Part shown: positions 1,831 to 36,475 of the stretch, one piece after another
Position numbering within the stretch: position 1 is the stretch's first letter
How the letters are laid out: each line of letters opens with the position of its first letter
Assembly: GCA_964428135.1 (NCBI GenBank)
Contig: CAYRXD010000003.1
Location: 1 to 36,475, forward strand
Direction of reading: 5' to 3'
Length of the DNA stretch: 36,475 nt
Origin: an uncultured Candidatus Saccharibacteria bacterium
GTDB taxonomy: Bacteria; Patescibacteriota; Minisyncoccia; Phycocordibacterales; CAIJYI01
Position numbers and translations under genes: made by a program
The notes under the pieces: generated by a model
The model's input: only the letters and a program-made list of their open reading frames with translations
The model's database searches: none
Told to the model about the DNA's origin: nothing

Positions 1831-3132
1831 ATGAAAGCAAACAGGGTTCTTATTATTGGTGCCGGGCTTGCGGGGCGTAAAACTCTTCAGCAGATAAGAA
1901 AGGAGCGCCGCTCGGATATTTTTGTTGTTGGTTTTGTCGACGATGATCCAAAAAAACAAGATACGGAGATCGGCGGGGTGGCTGTTCTTGGGGTGATCGA
2001 CACTATACCGCGCTTGGTAAAAGCAGAAAACATAGATCAGGCCCTGATCTCTACGCCATCGGTGGGCGGAGAACTCGTTACCCGAGTGACCCGCCTGCTT
2101 CCGCCCGGAATCTCCATAAAAGTCCTTCCGAGTATCTCTTCGGTTATTTTAGGGAAGGTTGATCTCTCATATATCCGCGATATTGACCCGTCCGACCTGA
2201 TCGGCAGGCCACTTGTAAAATCCAACCAAGAGATCATTTCGGAAAAAGCAAAAGGGAAAAGTTTTTTGGTCACCGGGGGCGCCGGTTCGATAGGGAGTGA
2301 GATTGTACGTCAGCTGTACGATTCAAAGGCAAAGCGAGTGGTTGTATTGGATTCATGGGAAGAAGGTGTTTATCATCTGCTTGAAGAGCTTGGACCAAAA
2401 CGCAGCGCTGAGCGTCCGGATCTGAAAACTTTTATCGGCAATATTCGCGATAAAAAACGAGTTGAGGAAATACTCGAACTTTTTCCTGTCGATGTAATTA
2501 TTCACGCCGCGGCGTACAAACACTTGCCGTTGATGGAAGATAACCCCGGAGAAGCGCGAAAAACGAACTTCCAAGGTACGAAAAATATGCTGGATATCGC
2601 CATAAAGTACGGAATCAAGGATTTCGTGCTGATCTCTACGGACAAAGCGGTAAATCCGTCTTGTGTAATGGGGGAGACGAAACGCCGAGCGGAGCTCCTC
2701 GTGAAGGCTTACGCGAAGAAATATACCAATCATCGTTTTTGCGCAGTACGGTTTGGAAATGTTTTGAACTCTTCCGGAAGCATCGTTCCGAAGTTTTTGA
2801 AACAAATACAGAACCGGACGGCGCTCACTATCACCGATAAGGAGATGACTCGTTATTTCATGTCCATTCCCGAAGCCGTATCTCTCGTGCTTTCGTCATG
2901 GGTGATATCAAAAAATGGGCAGATACTCCTTTTGGATATGGGTGAACCGATAAAGATTCTCGATCTTGCCATAAACCTCCTTCGGATACACGGACTTGAA
3001 CCGTATAAAGACATAGAAATAAAAGAAACCGGCATACGTCCGGGAGAAAAGATACATGAAAAACTCGCTTATGACAAACATGGTATCAAACCGAGTTCTC
3101 TAGAACGGATCTTTATCGCGGAAGAGATATAA
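1831..3132 (+). CDS. Polysaccharide biosynthesis protein of the CapD/PglF/WbpM family (NDP-HexNAc 4,6-dehydratase type), soluble form
   Basis: 433 aa. Rossmann motif LVTGGAGSIGSEI. Family motifs AAAYKHLPLMEDNPGEARKTNFQGT, ISTDKAVNPSCVMGETKRRAE, VRFGNVLNSSGSIVPKF and MTRYFMSIPEAVSLVL. The N-terminal CoA-binding-like domain is present, but the N-terminal TM helices of WbpM/PglF are absent. Confidence 0.85.
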   Translation: MKANRVLIIGAGLAGRKTLQQIRKERRSDIFVVGFVDDDPKKQDTEIGGVAVLGVIDTIPRLVKAENIDQALISTPSVGGELVTRVTRLLPPGISIKVLPSISSVILGKVDLSYIRDIDPSDLIGRPLVKSNQEIISEKAKGKSFLVTGGAGSIGSEIVRQLYDSKAKRVVVLDSWEEGVYHLLEELGPKRSAERPDLKTFIGNIRDKKRVEEILELFPVDVIIHAAAYKHLPLMEDNPGEARKTNFQGTKNMLDIAIKYGIKDFVLISTDKAVNPSCVMGETKRRAELLVKAYAKKYTNHRFCAVRFGNVLNSSGSIVPKFLKQIQNRTALTITDKEMTRYFMSIPEAVSLVLSSWVISKNGQILLLDMGEPIKILDLAINLLRIHGLEPYKDIEIKETGIRPGEKIHEKLAYDKHGIKPSSLERIFIAEEI

Positions 3133-3223
3133 AAAGTCGAAAGTCTATAAAGTCCGTAAAGTCAAAAGTCACGACGGCGTCGGCGTACTTTATAGACTTT
3201 AAGGACTTTTGACTTTATGGACT
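3133..3223. repeat. Segmented inverted repeat built from AAAGTC / GACTTT words; cargo-less hairpin, probable bidirectional terminator
   Basis: Left arm: aaagtcgaaagtctataaagtccgtaaagtcaaaagtcacgacg. Right arm: cgtactttatagactttaaggacttttgactttatggact. By hand the words pair in helices of about 5+7+7+6+4 bp separated by small internal loops. The element is flanked by an A run (3131-3135) and a T run (3225-3229). It lies between convergent genes, and the right arm supplies the last codons and stop of the AsnB-like gene. Confidence 0.75.
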
Positions 3224-4972: not shown

Positions 4973-4985
4973 GTGAGTTTATCAA

Positions 4986-5013
4986 GTTGTAAAGTTCATA
5001 AAGTTCGACGGCG
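4986..5013. repeat. Degenerate left-arm copy of the AAAGTC word repeat (AAAGTTC variant)
   Basis: gttgtaaagttcataaagttcgacggcg shares the ...aaagt(t)c..cgacggcgt end with the left arm at 3155-3180. It lies just downstream of the MazF-like gene. Confidence 0.45.
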
Positions 5014-5043
5014 TTCTTGCATCCGTTATTTTTCTTAGGCGTC

Positions 5044-5391
5044 TTAATCCGTGACGTATTTTACATATTCAAGCTGAATGCGATTTATTTCGTTTTGGTC
5101 TAAATGTCCTATTTTTTTCTGCAACAAACTCATATCTGCCGCGAATGATTGGGCAAGGAGAACAAATGATGTCATGGTCAGGCCGTTGTCTGTCGTCGGC
5201 AAAACTTCCACTACGTATTTCTGGTGAAGTTTCTTTTTTGAGGTGCAAGGAGCAACAGTGACTGTTTCGCCGGTCACTTGGGTTACTATGACGTGCGGGC
5301 GTATCCCATTTTGGATATGACCGATCGCATTCGTATTTTCGACAAGCCAGACGTCTCCCTTCTTTATTTTTTTATGTACGATGTTTTGCAT
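5044..5391 (-). CDS. Type II toxin, PemK/MazF family
   Basis: KKGDVWLVENTNAIGHIQNGIRPHVIVTQ...TVAPCTSKKK...LLAQSFAADMSLLQKKIGHLDQNEINRI matches the MazF/PemK layout (GD-W-V, G-x-RP-V-V, P-x-TS, Q...D..L..KIG.L). The first ATG is at 5391. The ORF-track start at 5418 is a TTG. Confidence 0.75.
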   Translation of the reverse strand: MQNIVHKKIKKGDVWLVENTNAIGHIQNGIRPHVIVTQVTGETVTVAPCTSKKKLHQKYVVEVLPTTDNGLTMTSFVLLAQSFAADMSLLQKKIGHLDQNEINRIQLEYVKYVTD

Positions 5392-5500
5392 GGAGAATAG
5401 CTTGCTGTTCCAAGGCAATTTGTTGCCAAAATTTAGACTCCGTCATGGTTTTACTAGGGTGTTTTTTTTGGAAAAGTGAATTTTTCTTTGCGGTTTTCAT
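5372..5500 (-). CDS. 42-codon ORF upstream of and overlapping the MazF-like gene; candidate (atypically short) antitoxin
   Basis: My translation is MKTAKKNSLFQKKHPSKTMTESKFWQQIALEQQAILHAKHRT. The ORF is absent from the supplied track (under 60 aa). It overlaps the toxin start by 20 nt, and a near-consensus promoter ends 6 nt before its ATG. I recognise no antitoxin family. Confidence 0.35.
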   Translation of the reverse strand: MKTAKKNSLFQKKHPSKTMTESKFWQQIALEQQAILHAKHRT

Positions 5501-5506
5501 GCCTTT

Positions 5507-5535
5507 ATTATATACCAAAAACTTTATATTGGCAA
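5507..5535 (-). promoter_or_regulatory. Near-consensus sigma70 promoter of the toxin module, leaderless architecture
   Basis: Minus strand reads TTGCCA (5535-5530), 17-nt spacer, TATAAT (5512-5507), then 6 nt (aaaggc) to ATG 5500. Confidence 0.6.
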
Positions 5536-5547
5536 ACTAAAAAACGA

Positions 5548-5580
5548 GGGACTTTATTTATAGACTTTAAGGACTTATAT
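5548..5580. repeat. Right-arm copy of the AAAGTC/GACTTT word repeat
   Basis: gggactttatttatagactttaaggacttatat. Its terminal ggacttatat is identical to 10947-10956. In both places it contains the stop codon of the upstream minus-strand gene (fucosyltransferase here, wzm there). Confidence 0.6.
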
Positions 5581-9226: not shown

Positions 9227-10489
9227 TTAATAATGTTCCCACTTCAAACGTGGGCGCACAACTCCCGGAATTCTCCGGTTGAAATCTGATTGTCGAGCGT
9301 TTTCTATATCCTCGGCAACCGTAAAAGTAATTGCATCTTGTTTGTAAAAATGGATGCGCAAGGGACGCATACTTGAGAGAGCAATTCCTGCAACATAGGT
9401 TGTGTCATTAAGTAAATCTTCAGGAATCCACATGATGGACGTGTGTTCTCCAACTGTACCGAGTTTTTCATCAAATTCAGCGTGGTTTATAAAAGCAGTT
9501 TCTCCTCGCATGGTAAAAATATGGATATTTGGAATCGGAATGTAGCCTTCTTTGAGAATCTCATACGTAAATTCGACACCGATTTTTTTGTTTGCAGTAA
9601 TGAATGATATGGCATTTTTATTTTCATCTACAATCTTAGCAGAATGAAGTACGGCCACATCATCACCAAAATGTTCTAACTCAAAATTTGCTTCGGAACT
9701 GCGGGATTTAACATCGTTTAAATAAGTGTTAATTACGTCTTCTGTATTCCCAAACATTTTCACCTTTCCTTTCTCAAGTAAAATCGTCTTCGGACAGAGT
9801 TGTTGTATCGCGGACATATTGTGACTTACGAAAAGAATCGTGCGGCCTTTGCCGTGGGTGACTTCTTCCATTTTGCCGAGGCACTTTTTTTGGAATTCAG
9901 CATCACCGACGGCGAGAACTTCGTCTACCAGGAGAATGTCCGGCTCCATGTGGGCGGCGACGGAGAAGGCGAGGCGGACGTACATGCCGCTTGAATAGTA
10001 TTTCACTGGGGTATCAAGAAATTTTTCGATGCCGGAGAAGGCGACTATTTCGTCAAATTTCGAGGCTATTTCTTTTTTCGTCATACCAAGAATAGCGCCG
10101 TTCAAGAAAATATTTTCACGTCCGGTGAGCTCTGGGTGGAAGCCGGTGCCGACTTCAAGGAGGGAGGCGGCTTTGCCGTGCATGATAATCTCGCCTTCCG
10201 TTGGCGGGGTGATACCCGTAAGGATTTTTAAGAGCGTACTTTTCCCTGCACCGTTTTGTCCGATGATGCCTACTACCTCGCCCTGGTTTATGGAAACGCT
10301 CACGTCTTTCAGTGCCCAGAATTCTTCCTTTGTGCCGATGCCAGCCACGCTTTTCGCTTTCGCTTTGAGAAATCGAAAGGGGCTTTTGAGAATATTCGTC
10401 AGTACATCACGCAATGCAATATAACCGCCACGTTGATGAGTGATGTTGTACTTCTTTCCAATATTTTTTATGGTTATTATGGGGGGCAT
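9227..10489 (-). CDS. wzt: Polysaccharide ABC exporter ATP-binding protein Wzt/TagH type with ~170-aa C-terminal extension (Wzt_C-like carbohydrate-binding domain)
   Basis: 420 aa. Walker A GQNGAGKSTLLK, signature YSSGMYVRLAF, Walker B ILLVDEVLAVGD. The region after about residue 250 is beta-rich and non-NBD. Confidence 0.85.
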   Translation of the reverse strand: MPPIITIKNIGKKYNITHQRGGYIALRDVLTNILKSPFRFLKAKAKSVAGIGTKEEFWALKDVSVSINQGEVVGIIGQNGAGKSTLLKILTGITPPTEGEIIMHGKAASLLEVGTGFHPELTGRENIFLNGAILGMTKKEIASKFDEIVAFSGIEKFLDTPVKYYSSGMYVRLAFSVAAHMEPDILLVDEVLAVGDAEFQKKCLGKMEEVTHGKGRTILFVSHNMSAIQQLCPKTILLEKGKVKMFGNTEDVINTYLNDVKSRSSEANFELEHFGDDVAVLHSAKIVDENKNAISFITANKKIGVEFTYEILKEGYIPIPNIHIFTMRGETAFINHAEFDEKLGTVGEHTSIMWIPEDLLNDTTYVAGIALSSMRPLRIHFYKQDAITFTVAEDIENARQSDFNRRIPGVVRPRLKWEHY

Positions 10490-10490
10490 A

Positions 10491-10568
10491 AAAAGTCAAA
10501 AGTCCTTAAAGTCTATAAAGTCCGTAAAGTCACGACGATGCCGGACTTTATGGGCTTAATAGACTTTT
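10491..10568. repeat. AAAGTC word-repeat hairpin (left arm plus short right arm) between wzt and the four-helix-bundle gene
   Basis: aaaagtcaaaagtccttaaagtctataaagtccgtaaagtcacgacg, then atgcc, then ggactttatgggcttaatagactttt. It shares a 25-nt identity (aaagtctataaagtccgtaaagtca) with 3143-3167. The right part encodes the C-terminus (IKSLLSP*) of the four-helix-bundle protein. Confidence 0.75.
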
Positions 10569-10901
10569 AATCAATCCTGAAAGCAGCCTTGAAATTTCAG
10601 TGGATAAGGCGTAATACTTCGTATACTGTTCTTTCGTTACGTACCCAAGGCTTAAGGCTAAATATAGCATTGATCTCACTTCTCCGCACGAACCTTTGGC
10701 TATGAATAAGAAATGTTTAAATTCTTTATCGCCCCTTCTTTCGAAGCCTTCGGCAATGTTATTCATGATTGATACTGACGCTCGCTGTATTTGGTCTCTA
10801 AATCCAAAGTCTTTGCTACTCCTGAATGTTTTATAAATAAACAAAGTTAATTCGTTTGCTTTCTGCCAAGCGACAATATCTTCAAATGTATCTATTTTCA
10901 T
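10548..10901 (-). CDS. Four-helix-bundle protein (23S rRNA intervening-sequence protein / Avd family, PF05635-like)
   Basis: FEDIVAWQKANELTLFIYKTF...FGFRDQIQRASVSIMNNIAEGFERRGDKEFKHFLFIAKGSCGEVRSMLYLA is the classic family signature. The likely start is MKIDTF at 10901 (or ATG 10910). The longer track ORF reads into the repeat. Confidence 0.85.
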   Translation of the reverse strand: MKIDTFEDIVAWQKANELTLFIYKTFRSSKDFGFRDQIQRASVSIMNNIAEGFERRGDKEFKHFLFIAKGSCGEVRSMLYLALSLGYVTKEQYTKYYALSTEISRLLSGLIKSLLSP

Positions 10902-10910
10902 AACGGTCAT

Positions 10911-10956
10911 CGTGACTTTAAGGACTTTATAGACTTTCGACTTTATGGACTTATAT
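10911..10956. repeat. Right-arm AAAGTC/GACTTT word repeat; inverted partner of 10508-10534
   Basis: cgtgactttaaggactttatagacttt (10911-10937) is complementary to aaagtctataaagtccgtaaagtcacg (10508-10534) at 26 of 27 positions. It ends in ggacttatat, which contains the wzm stop codon. Confidence 0.8.
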
Positions 10957-11769
10957 AATATCCGCAAAGTACCGCTCCACCTTTTTAAAATATATCACCC
11001 CGATAATGAGAAGTACGGCACAGGCGGCTAAGGAATCCGCCATGAGTACCCAGTTTATCTTTGTGGCGCCAAGAAGGGCGGCGCGGGCGGTTTGAATAAC
11101 GCCCATCATGGGATTAAAGGCGAGCATCCACGAATATTTTCCAGCGATGCTTGCCGGATAGATGACGGGTGTGAGGAAAAGGAGAATCTGAATGAAGTAA
11201 GGAAGCACGAAACGCACGTCGCGGTATTTCACGTTTATTGCTGCAAGGAAAAGTCCGCCACCGACGGCCGCCATGAAGGTGATGATGAGGAGCACCGGAA
11301 GAATCAGAAGTCCTGTGAGGTGAGGAGTGTAGCCGTAATAGACCATCATTCCGACGAGGATGACTGATGAGATGGCGAAGTCAACAAATTTGGTAGCGAC
11401 GGCCGAGAGAGGAAGAATGAGCCGCGGGAAATACACTTTCGTAATAATGGCTTGGTTACTGATGAGCGTGCCGCTTGTTTCAGAGAGGGCGGTAGAAAAA
11501 AATTGCCAGAAGAGAAGTCCGGTGTAGACAAAAATTGGATAAGGGATTCCGTCGGAAGGAACGTTGAGAAGTTTTCCAAAAAAGAGACTGAAAACCACCA
11601 TGGTCATGAACGGCTGAAAAACTGCCCAAAGGACTCCAATGAGGGTTTGTTTGTATCGCACTTTAAAATCTCGCCACGTAAAAAAATACAAAAGTTCTTT
11701 GTAAGCCCAGATTTCACGCATATCGTCCCAGCTGAGGACTTTTTTTGGACGGATAACTGTTGTTTTCAT
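10951..11769 (-). CDS. wzm: Polysaccharide ABC exporter permease (ABC-2 type)
   Basis: YKELLYFFTWRDFKVRYKQTLIGVLWAVFQPF plus 6 predicted TM segments. The first ATG is at 11769 (MKTTVIRPKK). The track start at 11787 is a TTG. Confidence 0.85.
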   Translation of the reverse strand: MKTTVIRPKKVLSWDDMREIWAYKELLYFFTWRDFKVRYKQTLIGVLWAVFQPFMTMVVFSLFFGKLLNVPSDGIPYPIFVYTGLLFWQFFSTALSETSGTLISNQAIITKVYFPRLILPLSAVATKFVDFAISSVILVGMMVYYGYTPHLTGLLILPVLLIITFMAAVGGGLFLAAINVKYRDVRFVLPYFIQILLFLTPVIYPASIAGKYSWMLAFNPMMGVIQTARAALLGATKINWVLMADSLAACAVLLIIGVIYFKKVERYFADII

Positions 11770-11775
11770 TATAAA

Positions 11776-11781
11776 ATGATA
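11776..11781 (-). promoter_or_regulatory. Candidate -10 box 6 nt upstream of the wzm ATG
   Basis: Minus strand reads TATCAT, tttata, ATG(11769). I found no clear -35. Confidence 0.3.
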
Positions 11782-11796
11782 TGCCAATATACAAAT

Positions 11797-35600: not shown

Positions 35601-36475
<875 letters not shown>

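Follow-up and report, generated by a model that had tools for sequence, protein, structure and literature searches.

A gene cassette between wzm and wzt that resembles rRNA intervening sequences, and its relatives in operon gaps of Patescibacteria, Bacteroidota and cyanobacteria

The DNA analysed here (the window) is a stretch of 36,475 nucleotides from an uncultured Candidatus Saccharibacteria bacterium. Thirty ORFs of the window were scanned against Pfam: 23 belong to glycan-synthesis/export families, two match PF05635 and PemK/MazF, respectively, and five have no or weak matches. The PF05635 gene, which encodes a 117-aa four-helix-bundle protein, lies between wzm and wzt, and all three genes are on the minus strand, in agreement with the single-strand arrangement described in the earlier note. 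The wzm-wzt region contains the following features:

10951-11787, minus strand: wzm, ABC-2 type permease, the upstream host gene (Pfam profile search)
10903-10958, minus strand: 5' strand of the long-range duplex, an array of AAAGTC units with 9- and 7-nt period
10548-10901 including the stop codon, minus strand: four-helix-bundle gene, 117 aa, PF05635/TIGR02436 (profiles, homologues)
10542-10568, minus strand: internal third arm with the polarity of the 5' arm, overlapping the last codons and the stop of the four-helix-bundle ORF
10486-10544, minus strand: 3' strand of the long-range duplex, GACTTT units in mRNA sense with a U-rich tract at the end
9227-10489, minus strand: wzt, ABC ATPase with a weak Wzt_C match, the downstream host gene (Pfam profile search)

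The insert completely takes up the 461-nt gap between wzm and wzt, and both the wzm stop codon (10951-10953) and the wzt AUG (10487-10489) are within the duplex. The C-terminus of wzm, ERYFADII directly before the stop, is common to loci L085, L121, L126 and L140, and the N-terminus of wzt, MPPIITIKNIGKKYNITHQRGGY, is the same in L085; an exact-protein look-up of Wzt returned no record. The near-complementary 27-nt arms of the earlier note are confirmed and are lengthened by a repeat finder to 31 nt (10508-10538 and 10907-10937, 94% complementarity, 368 nt between). The window has 13 copies of the sequence AAAGTCNNNAAAGTC, where 0.31 would be expected. Like its homologues (MKI[DE]xFEDI), the four-helix-bundle ORF starts at an ATG, the one at 10901; the ORF is without a Shine-Dalgarno sequence, and a promoter scan found no sigma-70-like site upstream of it on the minus strand. 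No Rfam family matches the cassette or the hairpins, and rRNA is found in the window only at 35601-36475.

When folded as RNA, 10480-10970 reaches -133.7 kcal/mol compared with -101.8 +/- 6.0 kcal/mol for shuffled sequences (z -5.3; 0 of 100 shuffles as good), and the predicted long-range stem is present in the minimum-free-energy and centroid structures alike. The duplex between 10903-10958 and 10486-10544 by itself has 48 pairs and -59 kcal/mol. A local hairpin between the third arm and the 3' arm is also possible (-26.7 to -28.3 kcal/mol; z -4.6 for -26.7), and GACUUUUGACUUUUU follows this hairpin, 3' of the ORF. The arms of L121 have their units in different orders and pair in register over the inner ~14 nt only, which indicates that a long perfect stem is not strictly kept in every locus.

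The protein matches PF05635 (E 1.1e-35; 122.5 bits, cut-off 33.8) and TIGR02436 (116.3 bits, cut-off 24), and its AF2 monomer model (pLDDT 94.6) has four helices, with TM-scores of 0.88 to 2gsc (Xcc0516) and 0.82 to 2rld (BT_0352). The Avd fold that had been proposed for it agrees with the structure comparison (TM-score 0.79 to Avd, 4dwl; the DGR ribonucleoprotein 8ub7 also matched), and this likeness is one of fold only, as the bAvd profile PF22296 gives 14 bits against a cut-off of 40. The two PDB homologues 2gsc and 2rld each contain five chains, and Xcc0516 has been described as a pentamer (PMC4990558); Avd is likewise described as a pentamer, all five protomers of which bind stem-loop RNA (10.1101/2023.10.23.563531). 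The conserved family motif R..S...N..E (GxxRxxxSxxxNxxE) (PMC3936711) is present in full as R40, S44, N48 and E51, the last three of which do not vary from Patescibacteria to Azospirillum. The dN/dS among the four-helix-bundle genes is 0.03-0.18 (0.034 for the window copy vs L121), and the protein is thus under strong purifying selection. The Coxiella homologue has been reported as apparently not produced in vivo (PMC4990558). The L037 copy was considered as a pseudogene and this was rejected, because its in-frame TGAs fall on conserved Gly codons; the gene is intact and read in genetic code 25. An identity as a defence-system or HEPN protein was also rejected (0 PADLOC matches; no HEPN-type Pfam match even at E <= 10).

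Intervening sequences with an ORF have been known in rRNA since about 1990, and their origin, function and spread are still unexplained (PMC4990558). The intervening sequence of Coxiella 23S rRNA is 428-444 nt long and has a 28-bp stem that RNase III cuts in the middle (PMC4990558). A further copy, a true 23S intervening sequence, lies inside the LSU rRNA of Azospirillum lipoferum 4B plasmid p2 (L208), with a ~32-bp stem of GAGGACR/GATGACA units. In Patescibacteria, too, there are 16S and 23S rRNA insertions with a 23S_rRNA_IVP gene (PMC11270868). The kinship with such sequences suggested in the earlier note holds in several respects: the rRNA intervening sequences of Leptospira, Coxiella, Brucella and Azospirillum L208 encode the same protein family (PF05635/'S23p'), their size is similar (461 nt for the insert vs 428-444 nt), and a long terminal stem encloses the ORF only (48 bp in the cassette, 28 bp in Coxiella, ~32 bp in L208). 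In both settings the Shine-Dalgarno sequence of the ORF is poor or lacking, versions without the ORF exist, and, in L208 as in the cassette, the stem is made of short tandem units. The two differ in location, helix 25/45 of 23S rRNA for the former and a site between protein-coding genes of an mRNA operon for the latter, and in the AAAGTY-unit arrays, which are shared by many loci and two phyla and are a feature of the cassettes, unlike rRNA intervening sequences. The reading preferred here, with a probability of roughly 0.6, is that the element is of the intervening-sequence type, with an mRNA operon in place of an rRNA gene as its host.

Under the intervening-sequence reading, the cassette would be transcribed by read-through from wzm, and its arms would then pair into a dsRNA of ~48 bp that buries the wzt start region. 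Duplex length and the rRNA precedent suggest that RNase III would cut within this duplex as it does in rRNA intervening sequences; no RNase III gene was seen among the ORFs of the window, which covers only 36 kb. Cleavage would yield separate wzm, four-helix-bundle and wzt RNAs and would free the wzt initiation site. Such cutting would split a polycistronic mRNA, whereas cutting of an rRNA intervening sequence fragments an rRNA that stays assembled. By analogy with Avd, the protein, a putative Avd-like pentamer, may bind the tandem-unit stems of its own and of ORF-less copies. The elements would have spread in the past by insertion, also across phyla, and would now be inherited mostly vertically.

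The generality of this design was assessed in 80 loci selected solely by protein similarity, with arms scored in the 74 that have at least 70 bases of flank on each side. At least two units are present on each side in 72 of the 74, and the AAAGTY-unit arms are common to many loci and to two phyla. The upstream gene is co-oriented with the cassette in 66/66 loci and both neighbours in 50/54; host junctions include wzm|wzt, murT|gatD, rpsG|fusA, ftsE|ftsX, tdh|kbl, cas6|cas4 and parA|parB. Cognate arms form duplexes of -31.2 kcal/mol, compared with -27.1 for non-cognate and -16.3 for shuffled arms, an effect of cognate pairing that was exceeded in 0/10000 permutations, and the sixth base of the unit is correlated between arms (Spearman 0.83). 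The two arms therefore covary, and nearly all members of this protein subfamily in Patescibacteria and Bacteroidota have the array-gene-array architecture. Among the loci examined, inverted AAAGTY arrays enclose either nothing or a PF05635 gene, and the gaps between them are bimodal, at 0-60 nt (26 cases) or 340-460 nt (33 cases, all with the four-helix-bundle gene). A second regular class of cargo was considered for gaps >460 nt and rejected, as these hold host genes plus the four-helix-bundle gene. The stems of the copies in Nostoc, Anabaena, Riemerella and Geminocystis score z -4.6 to -9.4, and copies on cyanobacterial plasmids combine a tandem-unit stem with a PF05635 ORF; the heptamer arrays of Pseudanabaena L206 are direct, not inverted. 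Operon-gap cassettes like rRNA intervening sequences are widespread in Patescibacteria, Bacteroidota and cyanobacteria and apparently undescribed; a literature search found no paper on stem-bounded PF05635 copies in operons. In L209/L212, two cassettes lie within 5 kb.

Comparison of wzm|wzt junctions among relatives yields an empty site with a 6-nt spacer (L085), the same cargo in at least six loci (L121, L122, L126, L140, L154 and L209), a PDDEXK_3 gene instead (L123) and a MazF-like gene behind a 5' arm only (L127). Cargo has thus been acquired, lost and exchanged at junctions. The arms are 87-90% identical (87% for the 5' arm in L121/L122) compared with 72% at third codon positions of the ORF, and close relatives differ in how many units they have and in what order. 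No target-site duplication is recognisable between the occupied window junction and the empty L085 junction. Most copies that share a junction group in clades with saturated dS, which, together with the strong purifying selection, indicates long vertical residence and not active hopping. Of the mobile element proposed earlier, only historical spread is supported; the clades would suit a domesticated host function and an element alike. PD-(D/E)XK cassettes have a unit type of their own, and the two examples are too few for generalising.

A second junction of the window, GT11|asnB, carries an intact four-helix-bundle cassette in L212 and, in the window, MazEF between remnant arms:

5545-5577, minus strand: remnant 5' arm, AAGTCCTTAAAGTCTATAAATAAAGTCCC in mRNA sense, directly 3' of the GT11 stop codon
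5535->5507, minus strand: promoter-like site ahead of the PemK/MazF-like gene
5372-5500, minus strand: small ORF upstream of the PemK/MazF-like gene, putative antitoxin
5044-5391, minus strand: PemK/MazF-like toxin gene (PF02452, E 7.9e-16)
4975-5010, minus strand: degenerate remnant 3' arm, GAACTTTATGAACTTTACAACTT... in mRNA sense, directly 5' of the asnB ATG (comparison with the L212 3' arm); does not fold by itself

This replacement of cargo between retained outer arms is what would be expected if the arms act at the DNA level, as hairpin or cruciform landing pads or recombination hot spots (REP- or attC-like) that exchange small genes, with slippage, template switching and gene conversion keeping the arms complementary and RNA processing being incidental. 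The single 5' arm of L127, the presence of ORF-less hairpins in the same kinds of gap, the shifting unit number and order, and the separate unit type of the PD-(D/E)XK cassettes point in the same direction. The pairing itself does not discriminate between RNA-level and DNA-level selection, because sense and antisense arm duplexes are equally stable (-35.5 vs -35.0 kcal/mol) with equal numbers of G.U pairs (300 vs 300), and this strand test thus detected no pairing specific to sense RNA. Arrays acting as DNA would, however, leave unexplained the strict co-orientation with the upstream gene, which points to dependence on host transcription, and the single regular class of cargo between arrays; moreover, the identical design is an RNA processing signal in rRNA (PMC4990558), and no integrase, transposase or HUH enzyme is present among the Pfam-scanned ORFs of the 36-kb window. 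Action at the DNA level is therefore considered rather unlikely.

REPtrons and integron cassettes resemble the cassettes in part. A REPtron is a RAYT transposase gene flanked by inverted REP hairpins, accompanied by many solo REPs. Like REPtrons, the cassettes have a gene between inverted repeat copies, and gene-free copies of the repeat are scattered through the same genomes; the cassettes differ in encoding a four-helix bundle without a known nuclease or HUH motif, and in occurring as several cassettes per genome, embedded within operons. Integron cassettes likewise have promoterless co-oriented small ORFs and imperfect palindromes, with toxin-antitoxin genes as alternative cargo, whereas no integrase is present among the scanned window ORFs, and the elements described here have no attI, tandem cassette array or R/L-box core and are single and scattered between unrelated housekeeping genes.

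A single ORF-less hairpin lies in the window; L011, L086 and L098 each have several per genome. The window copy is as follows:

3133-3222, no strand assigned (folds on both strands): ORF-less hairpin, AAAGTC repeat family

It occupies a convergent gap (a PseB-like gene ends at 3132 and an asnB-like gene at 3215) and folds with -36.8 and -33.8 kcal/mol on the two strands (z -6.8 and -5.4); its stem is preceded by an A-tract and followed by a U-rich run. The exact fit to the convergent gap with these flanking tracts, the position of several other hairpins after tRNA genes, and the sequence that follows the local hairpin 3' of the four-helix-bundle ORF would suit host terminators (intrinsic or bidirectional), attenuators or 3'-end stabilisers belonging to a lineage-specific repeat, with the protein as a host RNA-binding regulator encoded in the loop; the wzm-wzt copy would then tune the permease-to-ATPase ratio. 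Long vertical retention and the purifying selection on the protein are also consistent with such a host role. Nevertheless, 13 of the 20 ORF-less hairpins for which both neighbours were called, and nearly all cassettes, lie between co-directional genes of essential operons (e.g., rpsG|fusA, ftsE|ftsX, murT|gatD), where termination would be harmful; a terminator scan did not call these AU-rich stems; and the empty L085 junction, together with the other cargo in L123 and L127, indicates that the insert is dispensable for wzm-wzt. A host regulatory device is accordingly judged improbable. In size and position, the ORF-less hairpins are like the Correia repeat-enclosed elements of Neisseria and other MITEs, which are likewise intergenic inverted repeats co-transcribed with their neighbours, and whose stems, in the case of Correia elements, are bound and cut or protected by RNase III, with altered expression of the adjacent gene (PMC2649163). 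Correia elements differ in having no gene, terminal repeats of unique sequence and TA target duplications, whereas the cassette has tandem 7-9-nt units, a conserved protein gene and no detectable target duplication.

Avd of diversity-generating retroelements grips a stem-loop RNA just 3' of its own gene and is needed for RT activity, and downstream RNA is base-paired with the 3' end of the coding RNA of avd (10.1101/2023.10.23.563531). The cassette protein has the same fold, and the cassette stem, unlike the Sp stem-loop of Avd, encloses the whole gene. That the cassette is a non-autonomous retroelement, whose excised stem-bounded RNA is copied by an RT in trans (e.g., of DGR type) and reinserted between genes with the Avd-like protein as an RT cofactor gripping the stem, would accord with this fold and function, the lack of a promoter, the strict co-orientation with host transcription, the precise stop-to-start placement and the occurrence of the family across phyla, but is very improbable given the absence of RT matches among the 30 window ORFs scanned against Pfam, the bAvd score below cut-off, and the junction-specific clades with saturated dS, which argue against frequent retro-copying.

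The intervening-sequence reading can be extended, as a speculation with little probability, to a single cross-phylum class of elements in which PF05635 proteins and tandem-unit stems colonise the stop-to-start gaps of operons and rRNA helices are one niche among these. A putatively pentameric protein would grip its cognate stem and drive or guide copying, possibly via an RNA intermediate and an RT in trans, and ORF-less hairpins would be non-autonomous derivatives. If this were true, the 'IVS protein' would gain a function and the origin of rRNA intervening sequences would be explained. Should this design prove common between ordinary genes, there would be hundreds of independent instances to study, with empty sites, swapped cargos and covarying arms, and an rRNA curiosity would turn into a question for comparative genomics and simple biochemistry. 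In Patescibacteria, genes of essential operons may also routinely lose their translational coupling through long dsRNA stems and inserted ORFs. The association that has been reported between 23S_rRNA_IVP genes and cas operons (PMC3936711) more likely arises because the cassette generally sits between operon genes. Gene callers run the ORFs on into the arrays, so that P0003 was called at 138 aa and P0006 at 132 aa.

The gene between wzm and wzt is bounded by inverted arrays of AAAGTC units, with which it forms a compact cassette inside the operon. The three genes lie in the following order:

10951–11787, minus strand: wzm, ABC-2 permease, the first gene
10548–10901, minus strand: four-helix-bundle ORF of 117 aa, the middle gene (PF05635, E 1.1e-35; TIGR02436, 116 bits)
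9227–10489, minus strand: wzt, ABC ATPase with a weak Wzt_C match, the third gene

The earlier note, made from the sequence alone, placed a PF05635-type gene on the same strand between wzm and wzt, which was borne out, and described 27-nt inverted arms, which a repeat finder extended to 31 nt with 94% complementarity (10508–10538 and 10907–10937). These arms consist of AAAGTC-unit arrays with periods of 9 and 7 nt. When RNA 10480–10970 was folded, the long-range stem that had been proposed was present in both the MFE and the centroid structure (-133.7 kcal/mol; z -5.3 vs shuffles), and blocking the 5′ arm resulted in a loss of 32 kcal/mol. The isolated arm duplex contains 48 pairs (-59 kcal/mol) and takes in both the stop codon of wzm at one end and the AUG of wzt at the other. 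A third arm (10542–10568) overlaps the ORF stop codon and could form a local, weaker hairpin with the 3′ arm.

This architecture is general, its two arms covary, and the cassette is co-oriented with its upstream gene. Close homologues of the protein number in the thousands (113–146 aa, mostly 114 aa), and 80 metagenome loci were sampled by protein similarity alone (62–82% identity), regardless of the repeat. Flanking sequence was sufficient in 74 of these loci, and in 72 of them arrays lie on both sides of the gene: at least two AAAGTY units just 5′ of the ATG, with their complements located at the stop codon or beyond it. Pairing energies were -31.2 kcal/mol for cognate arms, -27.1 for non-cognate arms and -16.3 for shuffled arms; after double-centring, the cognate effect was -4.0 kcal/mol and was exceeded in none of 10000 permutations. 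The sixth base of the unit (C or T) is likewise correlated between the arms (Spearman 0.83). The upstream gene is co-oriented with the cassette in 66 of 66 loci, and in 50 of 54 this holds for both neighbours. By our own reading, some 50 and 43 nt separate the gene from these neighbours, so that the element measures about 440 nt. Tabulation of what lies between an AAAGTY array and the next inverted array, as the earlier note had proposed, yielded two distance classes across all loci, 0–60 nt (n = 26) and 340–460 nt (n = 33), and all 33 members of the latter contain a four-helix-bundle gene. ORF-less hairpins occupy equally tight gaps (13 co-directional, 5–6 convergent and 2 divergent).

Cargo at these junctions turns over. 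Junctions recurring among the loci are wzm–wzt, murT–gatD, rpsG–fusA, ftsE–ftsX, tdh–kbl and pilB-like–pilC-like. Comparison of wzm–wzt in relatives, also suggested in the earlier note, revealed both empty and differently occupied sites, in four states altogether.

States of the wzm–wzt junction among the compared loci
Empty: L085, with a 6-nt spacer from stop codon to ATG
Four-helix-bundle gene: the window, L121, L122, L126, L140, L154 and L209
PD-(D/E)XK (PF13366) gene: L123 1446–1950, with its own TACGAA/TTCGTA-unit arms
MazF-like gene: L127 4197–4680, with a 5′ AAAGTC array upstream and no recognisable 3′ arm

A PD-(D/E)XK (PF13366) gene of ~140 aa is also found at L112 7246–7683 with GATAACGCAGAT-type inverted tandem-unit arms, and together with that of L123 it may represent a parallel cassette family. 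Within the window, AAAGTC units occur at three further sites, two of which bracket a toxin gene:

3133–3222: ORF-less hairpin exactly filling the gap between two convergent genes (-36.8 kcal/mol, z -6.8)
5545–5577 and 4975–5010: remnant arms on either side of the MazF-like toxin gene
5044–5391, minus strand: PemK/MazF-like toxin gene between GT11 and asnB (region 4975–5577)

Upstream of the toxin gene are a small ORF and a strong promoter-like site (TTGCCA-17-TATAAT, 5535 to 5507). Whereas the GT11–asnB junction of a syntenic Hainich groundwater contig (L212) carries an intact four-helix-bundle cassette, that of the window carries the MazEF region between outer AAAGTC/AACTTT arm remnants, and the cargo therefore appears to have been swapped inside retained arms. 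The hairpin at 3133–3222 may act as a bidirectional terminator. An A-tract lies ahead of its stem and a U-rich run behind it.

A scan with AAAGTCYNTAAAGTCYNTAAAGTC, using one genome per species, detected at least 119 loci against a chance expectation of less than one match by our own arithmetic. Patescibacteria and Bacteroidales account for most of the matches listed, and short palindromic hairpins are numerous among them. Bacteroidales/Muribaculaceae loci (L002, L012, L016, L024, L078, L079, L111 and others) contain long 9-nt arrays on one side only, such as CCTTAAAGTC/CCCTAAAGAC, which have neither an inverted partner nor a neighbouring four-helix-bundle gene.

Both the protein and the arms are under selective constraint. 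Protein dN/dS is 0.03–0.18 (0.034 between the window and L121, at dS 0.82), and in the latter pair the non-coding arms are 87–90% identical vs 72% for ORF third positions. In a neighbour-joining tree, copies from one junction mostly cluster; those at wzm–wzt are polyphyletic. The same arms are found in Bacteroidales copies at tdh–kbl, and the subfamily thus spans two phyla; in L043 the copy is truncated with its arms kept. Taken together, these features indicate that the insertions are old, that cassettes have occasionally been gained, lost or exchanged, and that they have long been inherited vertically under selection. On the 67-kb Hainich contig (L209/L212), a single polysaccharide gene cluster contains two cassettes at a distance of 5 kb; their proteins are 86% identical to each other and 85% and 82% identical to the window protein, which could reflect gene conversion or recent duplication.

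As for function, the cassette would be transcribed by read-through from wzm; no sigma-70-like site was found upstream of the ORF on its own strand. Its arms would then pair into a duplex burying the wzt start, and cleavage by RNase III would separate the wzm, four-helix-bundle and wzt RNAs. The AF2 model of the protein is a four-helix bundle (pLDDT 94.6; TM-score 0.88 to 2gsc, 0.82 to 2rld and 0.79 to Avd 4dwl). By analogy with Avd, the protein may bind the tandem-unit stem: in the ribonucleoprotein of diversity-generating retroelements (DGRs), five Avd protomers all grip one stem-loop. In DGR RNA the template repeat comes next after avd, and this stem-loop lies immediately 3′ of the repeat; in addition, the avd coding RNA base-pairs at its 3′ end with RNA downstream of it (10.1101/2023.10.23.563531). 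A role of the arms at the DNA level is a serious rival, since a test for pairing specific to the sense RNA was negative: duplex energies are -35.5 (sense) and -35.0 (antisense) kcal/mol, with 300 G·U pairs in each. Integron cassettes and classical MITEs were rejected on comparison, as was a DGR, with no RT among the scanned window ORFs and a bAvd profile score below the cut-off.

The window cassette differs from rRNA intervening sequences (IVSs) in location and otherwise matches them. The Coxiella IVS is 428–444 nt with a 28-bp stem cut mid-stem by RNase III (PMC4990558), and rRNA insertions of the Candidate Phyla Radiation include the four-helix-bundle ORF family (PMC11270868). The Azospirillum lipoferum copy lies about 1.2 kb into a 23S rRNA gene, with a ~32-bp stem of GAGGACR/GATGACA heptamers. 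Distant plasmid-borne members (31–51% identity) share this layout, with units of different sequence.

Distant plasmid-borne copies (neighbours; units; z)
Nostoc: unannotated; GGGAAAA; -5.1
Anabaena: cas6 and cas4; GGTGACA and others; -8.4
Riemerella: Fe-S accessory gene upstream, none listed downstream; AAGGTTY; -4.6
Geminocystis: AAA ATPase (ParA-like, our own reading) and ParB; GGGAARA; -9.4

The exception to the stem rule is a Pseudanabaena plasmid copy (L206 1390–1980), with long direct heptamer arrays (AAAGCTA upstream, AAAGCCA downstream) between cas6 and cas4. These arrays resemble cyanobacterial STRR repeats.

We found no description of stem-bounded copies inside operons in the consulted papers that name this protein family. 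Family genes between cas genes have been reported and read as a functional association (PMC3936711). In the cyanobacterial plasmids L204, L206 and L207, the genes lie either between cas6 and cas4 or between a ParA-like AAA-family ATPase gene and parB, and the published CRISPR association more likely reflects the general habit of the cassette of sitting between operon genes.

The gene at L037 3892–4260 has four in-frame TGA codons, two at invariant Gly (AE*F, K*SCGE), one at conserved Gly33 and one (K*RE) at a variable position; the Gly positions point to genetic code 25 (Gracilibacteria/Absconditabacteria-like) and hence to cassettes in recoded lineages as well. A standard table-11 ORF call would label this gene a pseudogene. 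The window itself ends within a 16S rRNA gene (35601–36475, the first ~920 model positions, running off the 3′ end), apart from which a surface-polysaccharide gene cluster accounts for most of its ORFs.
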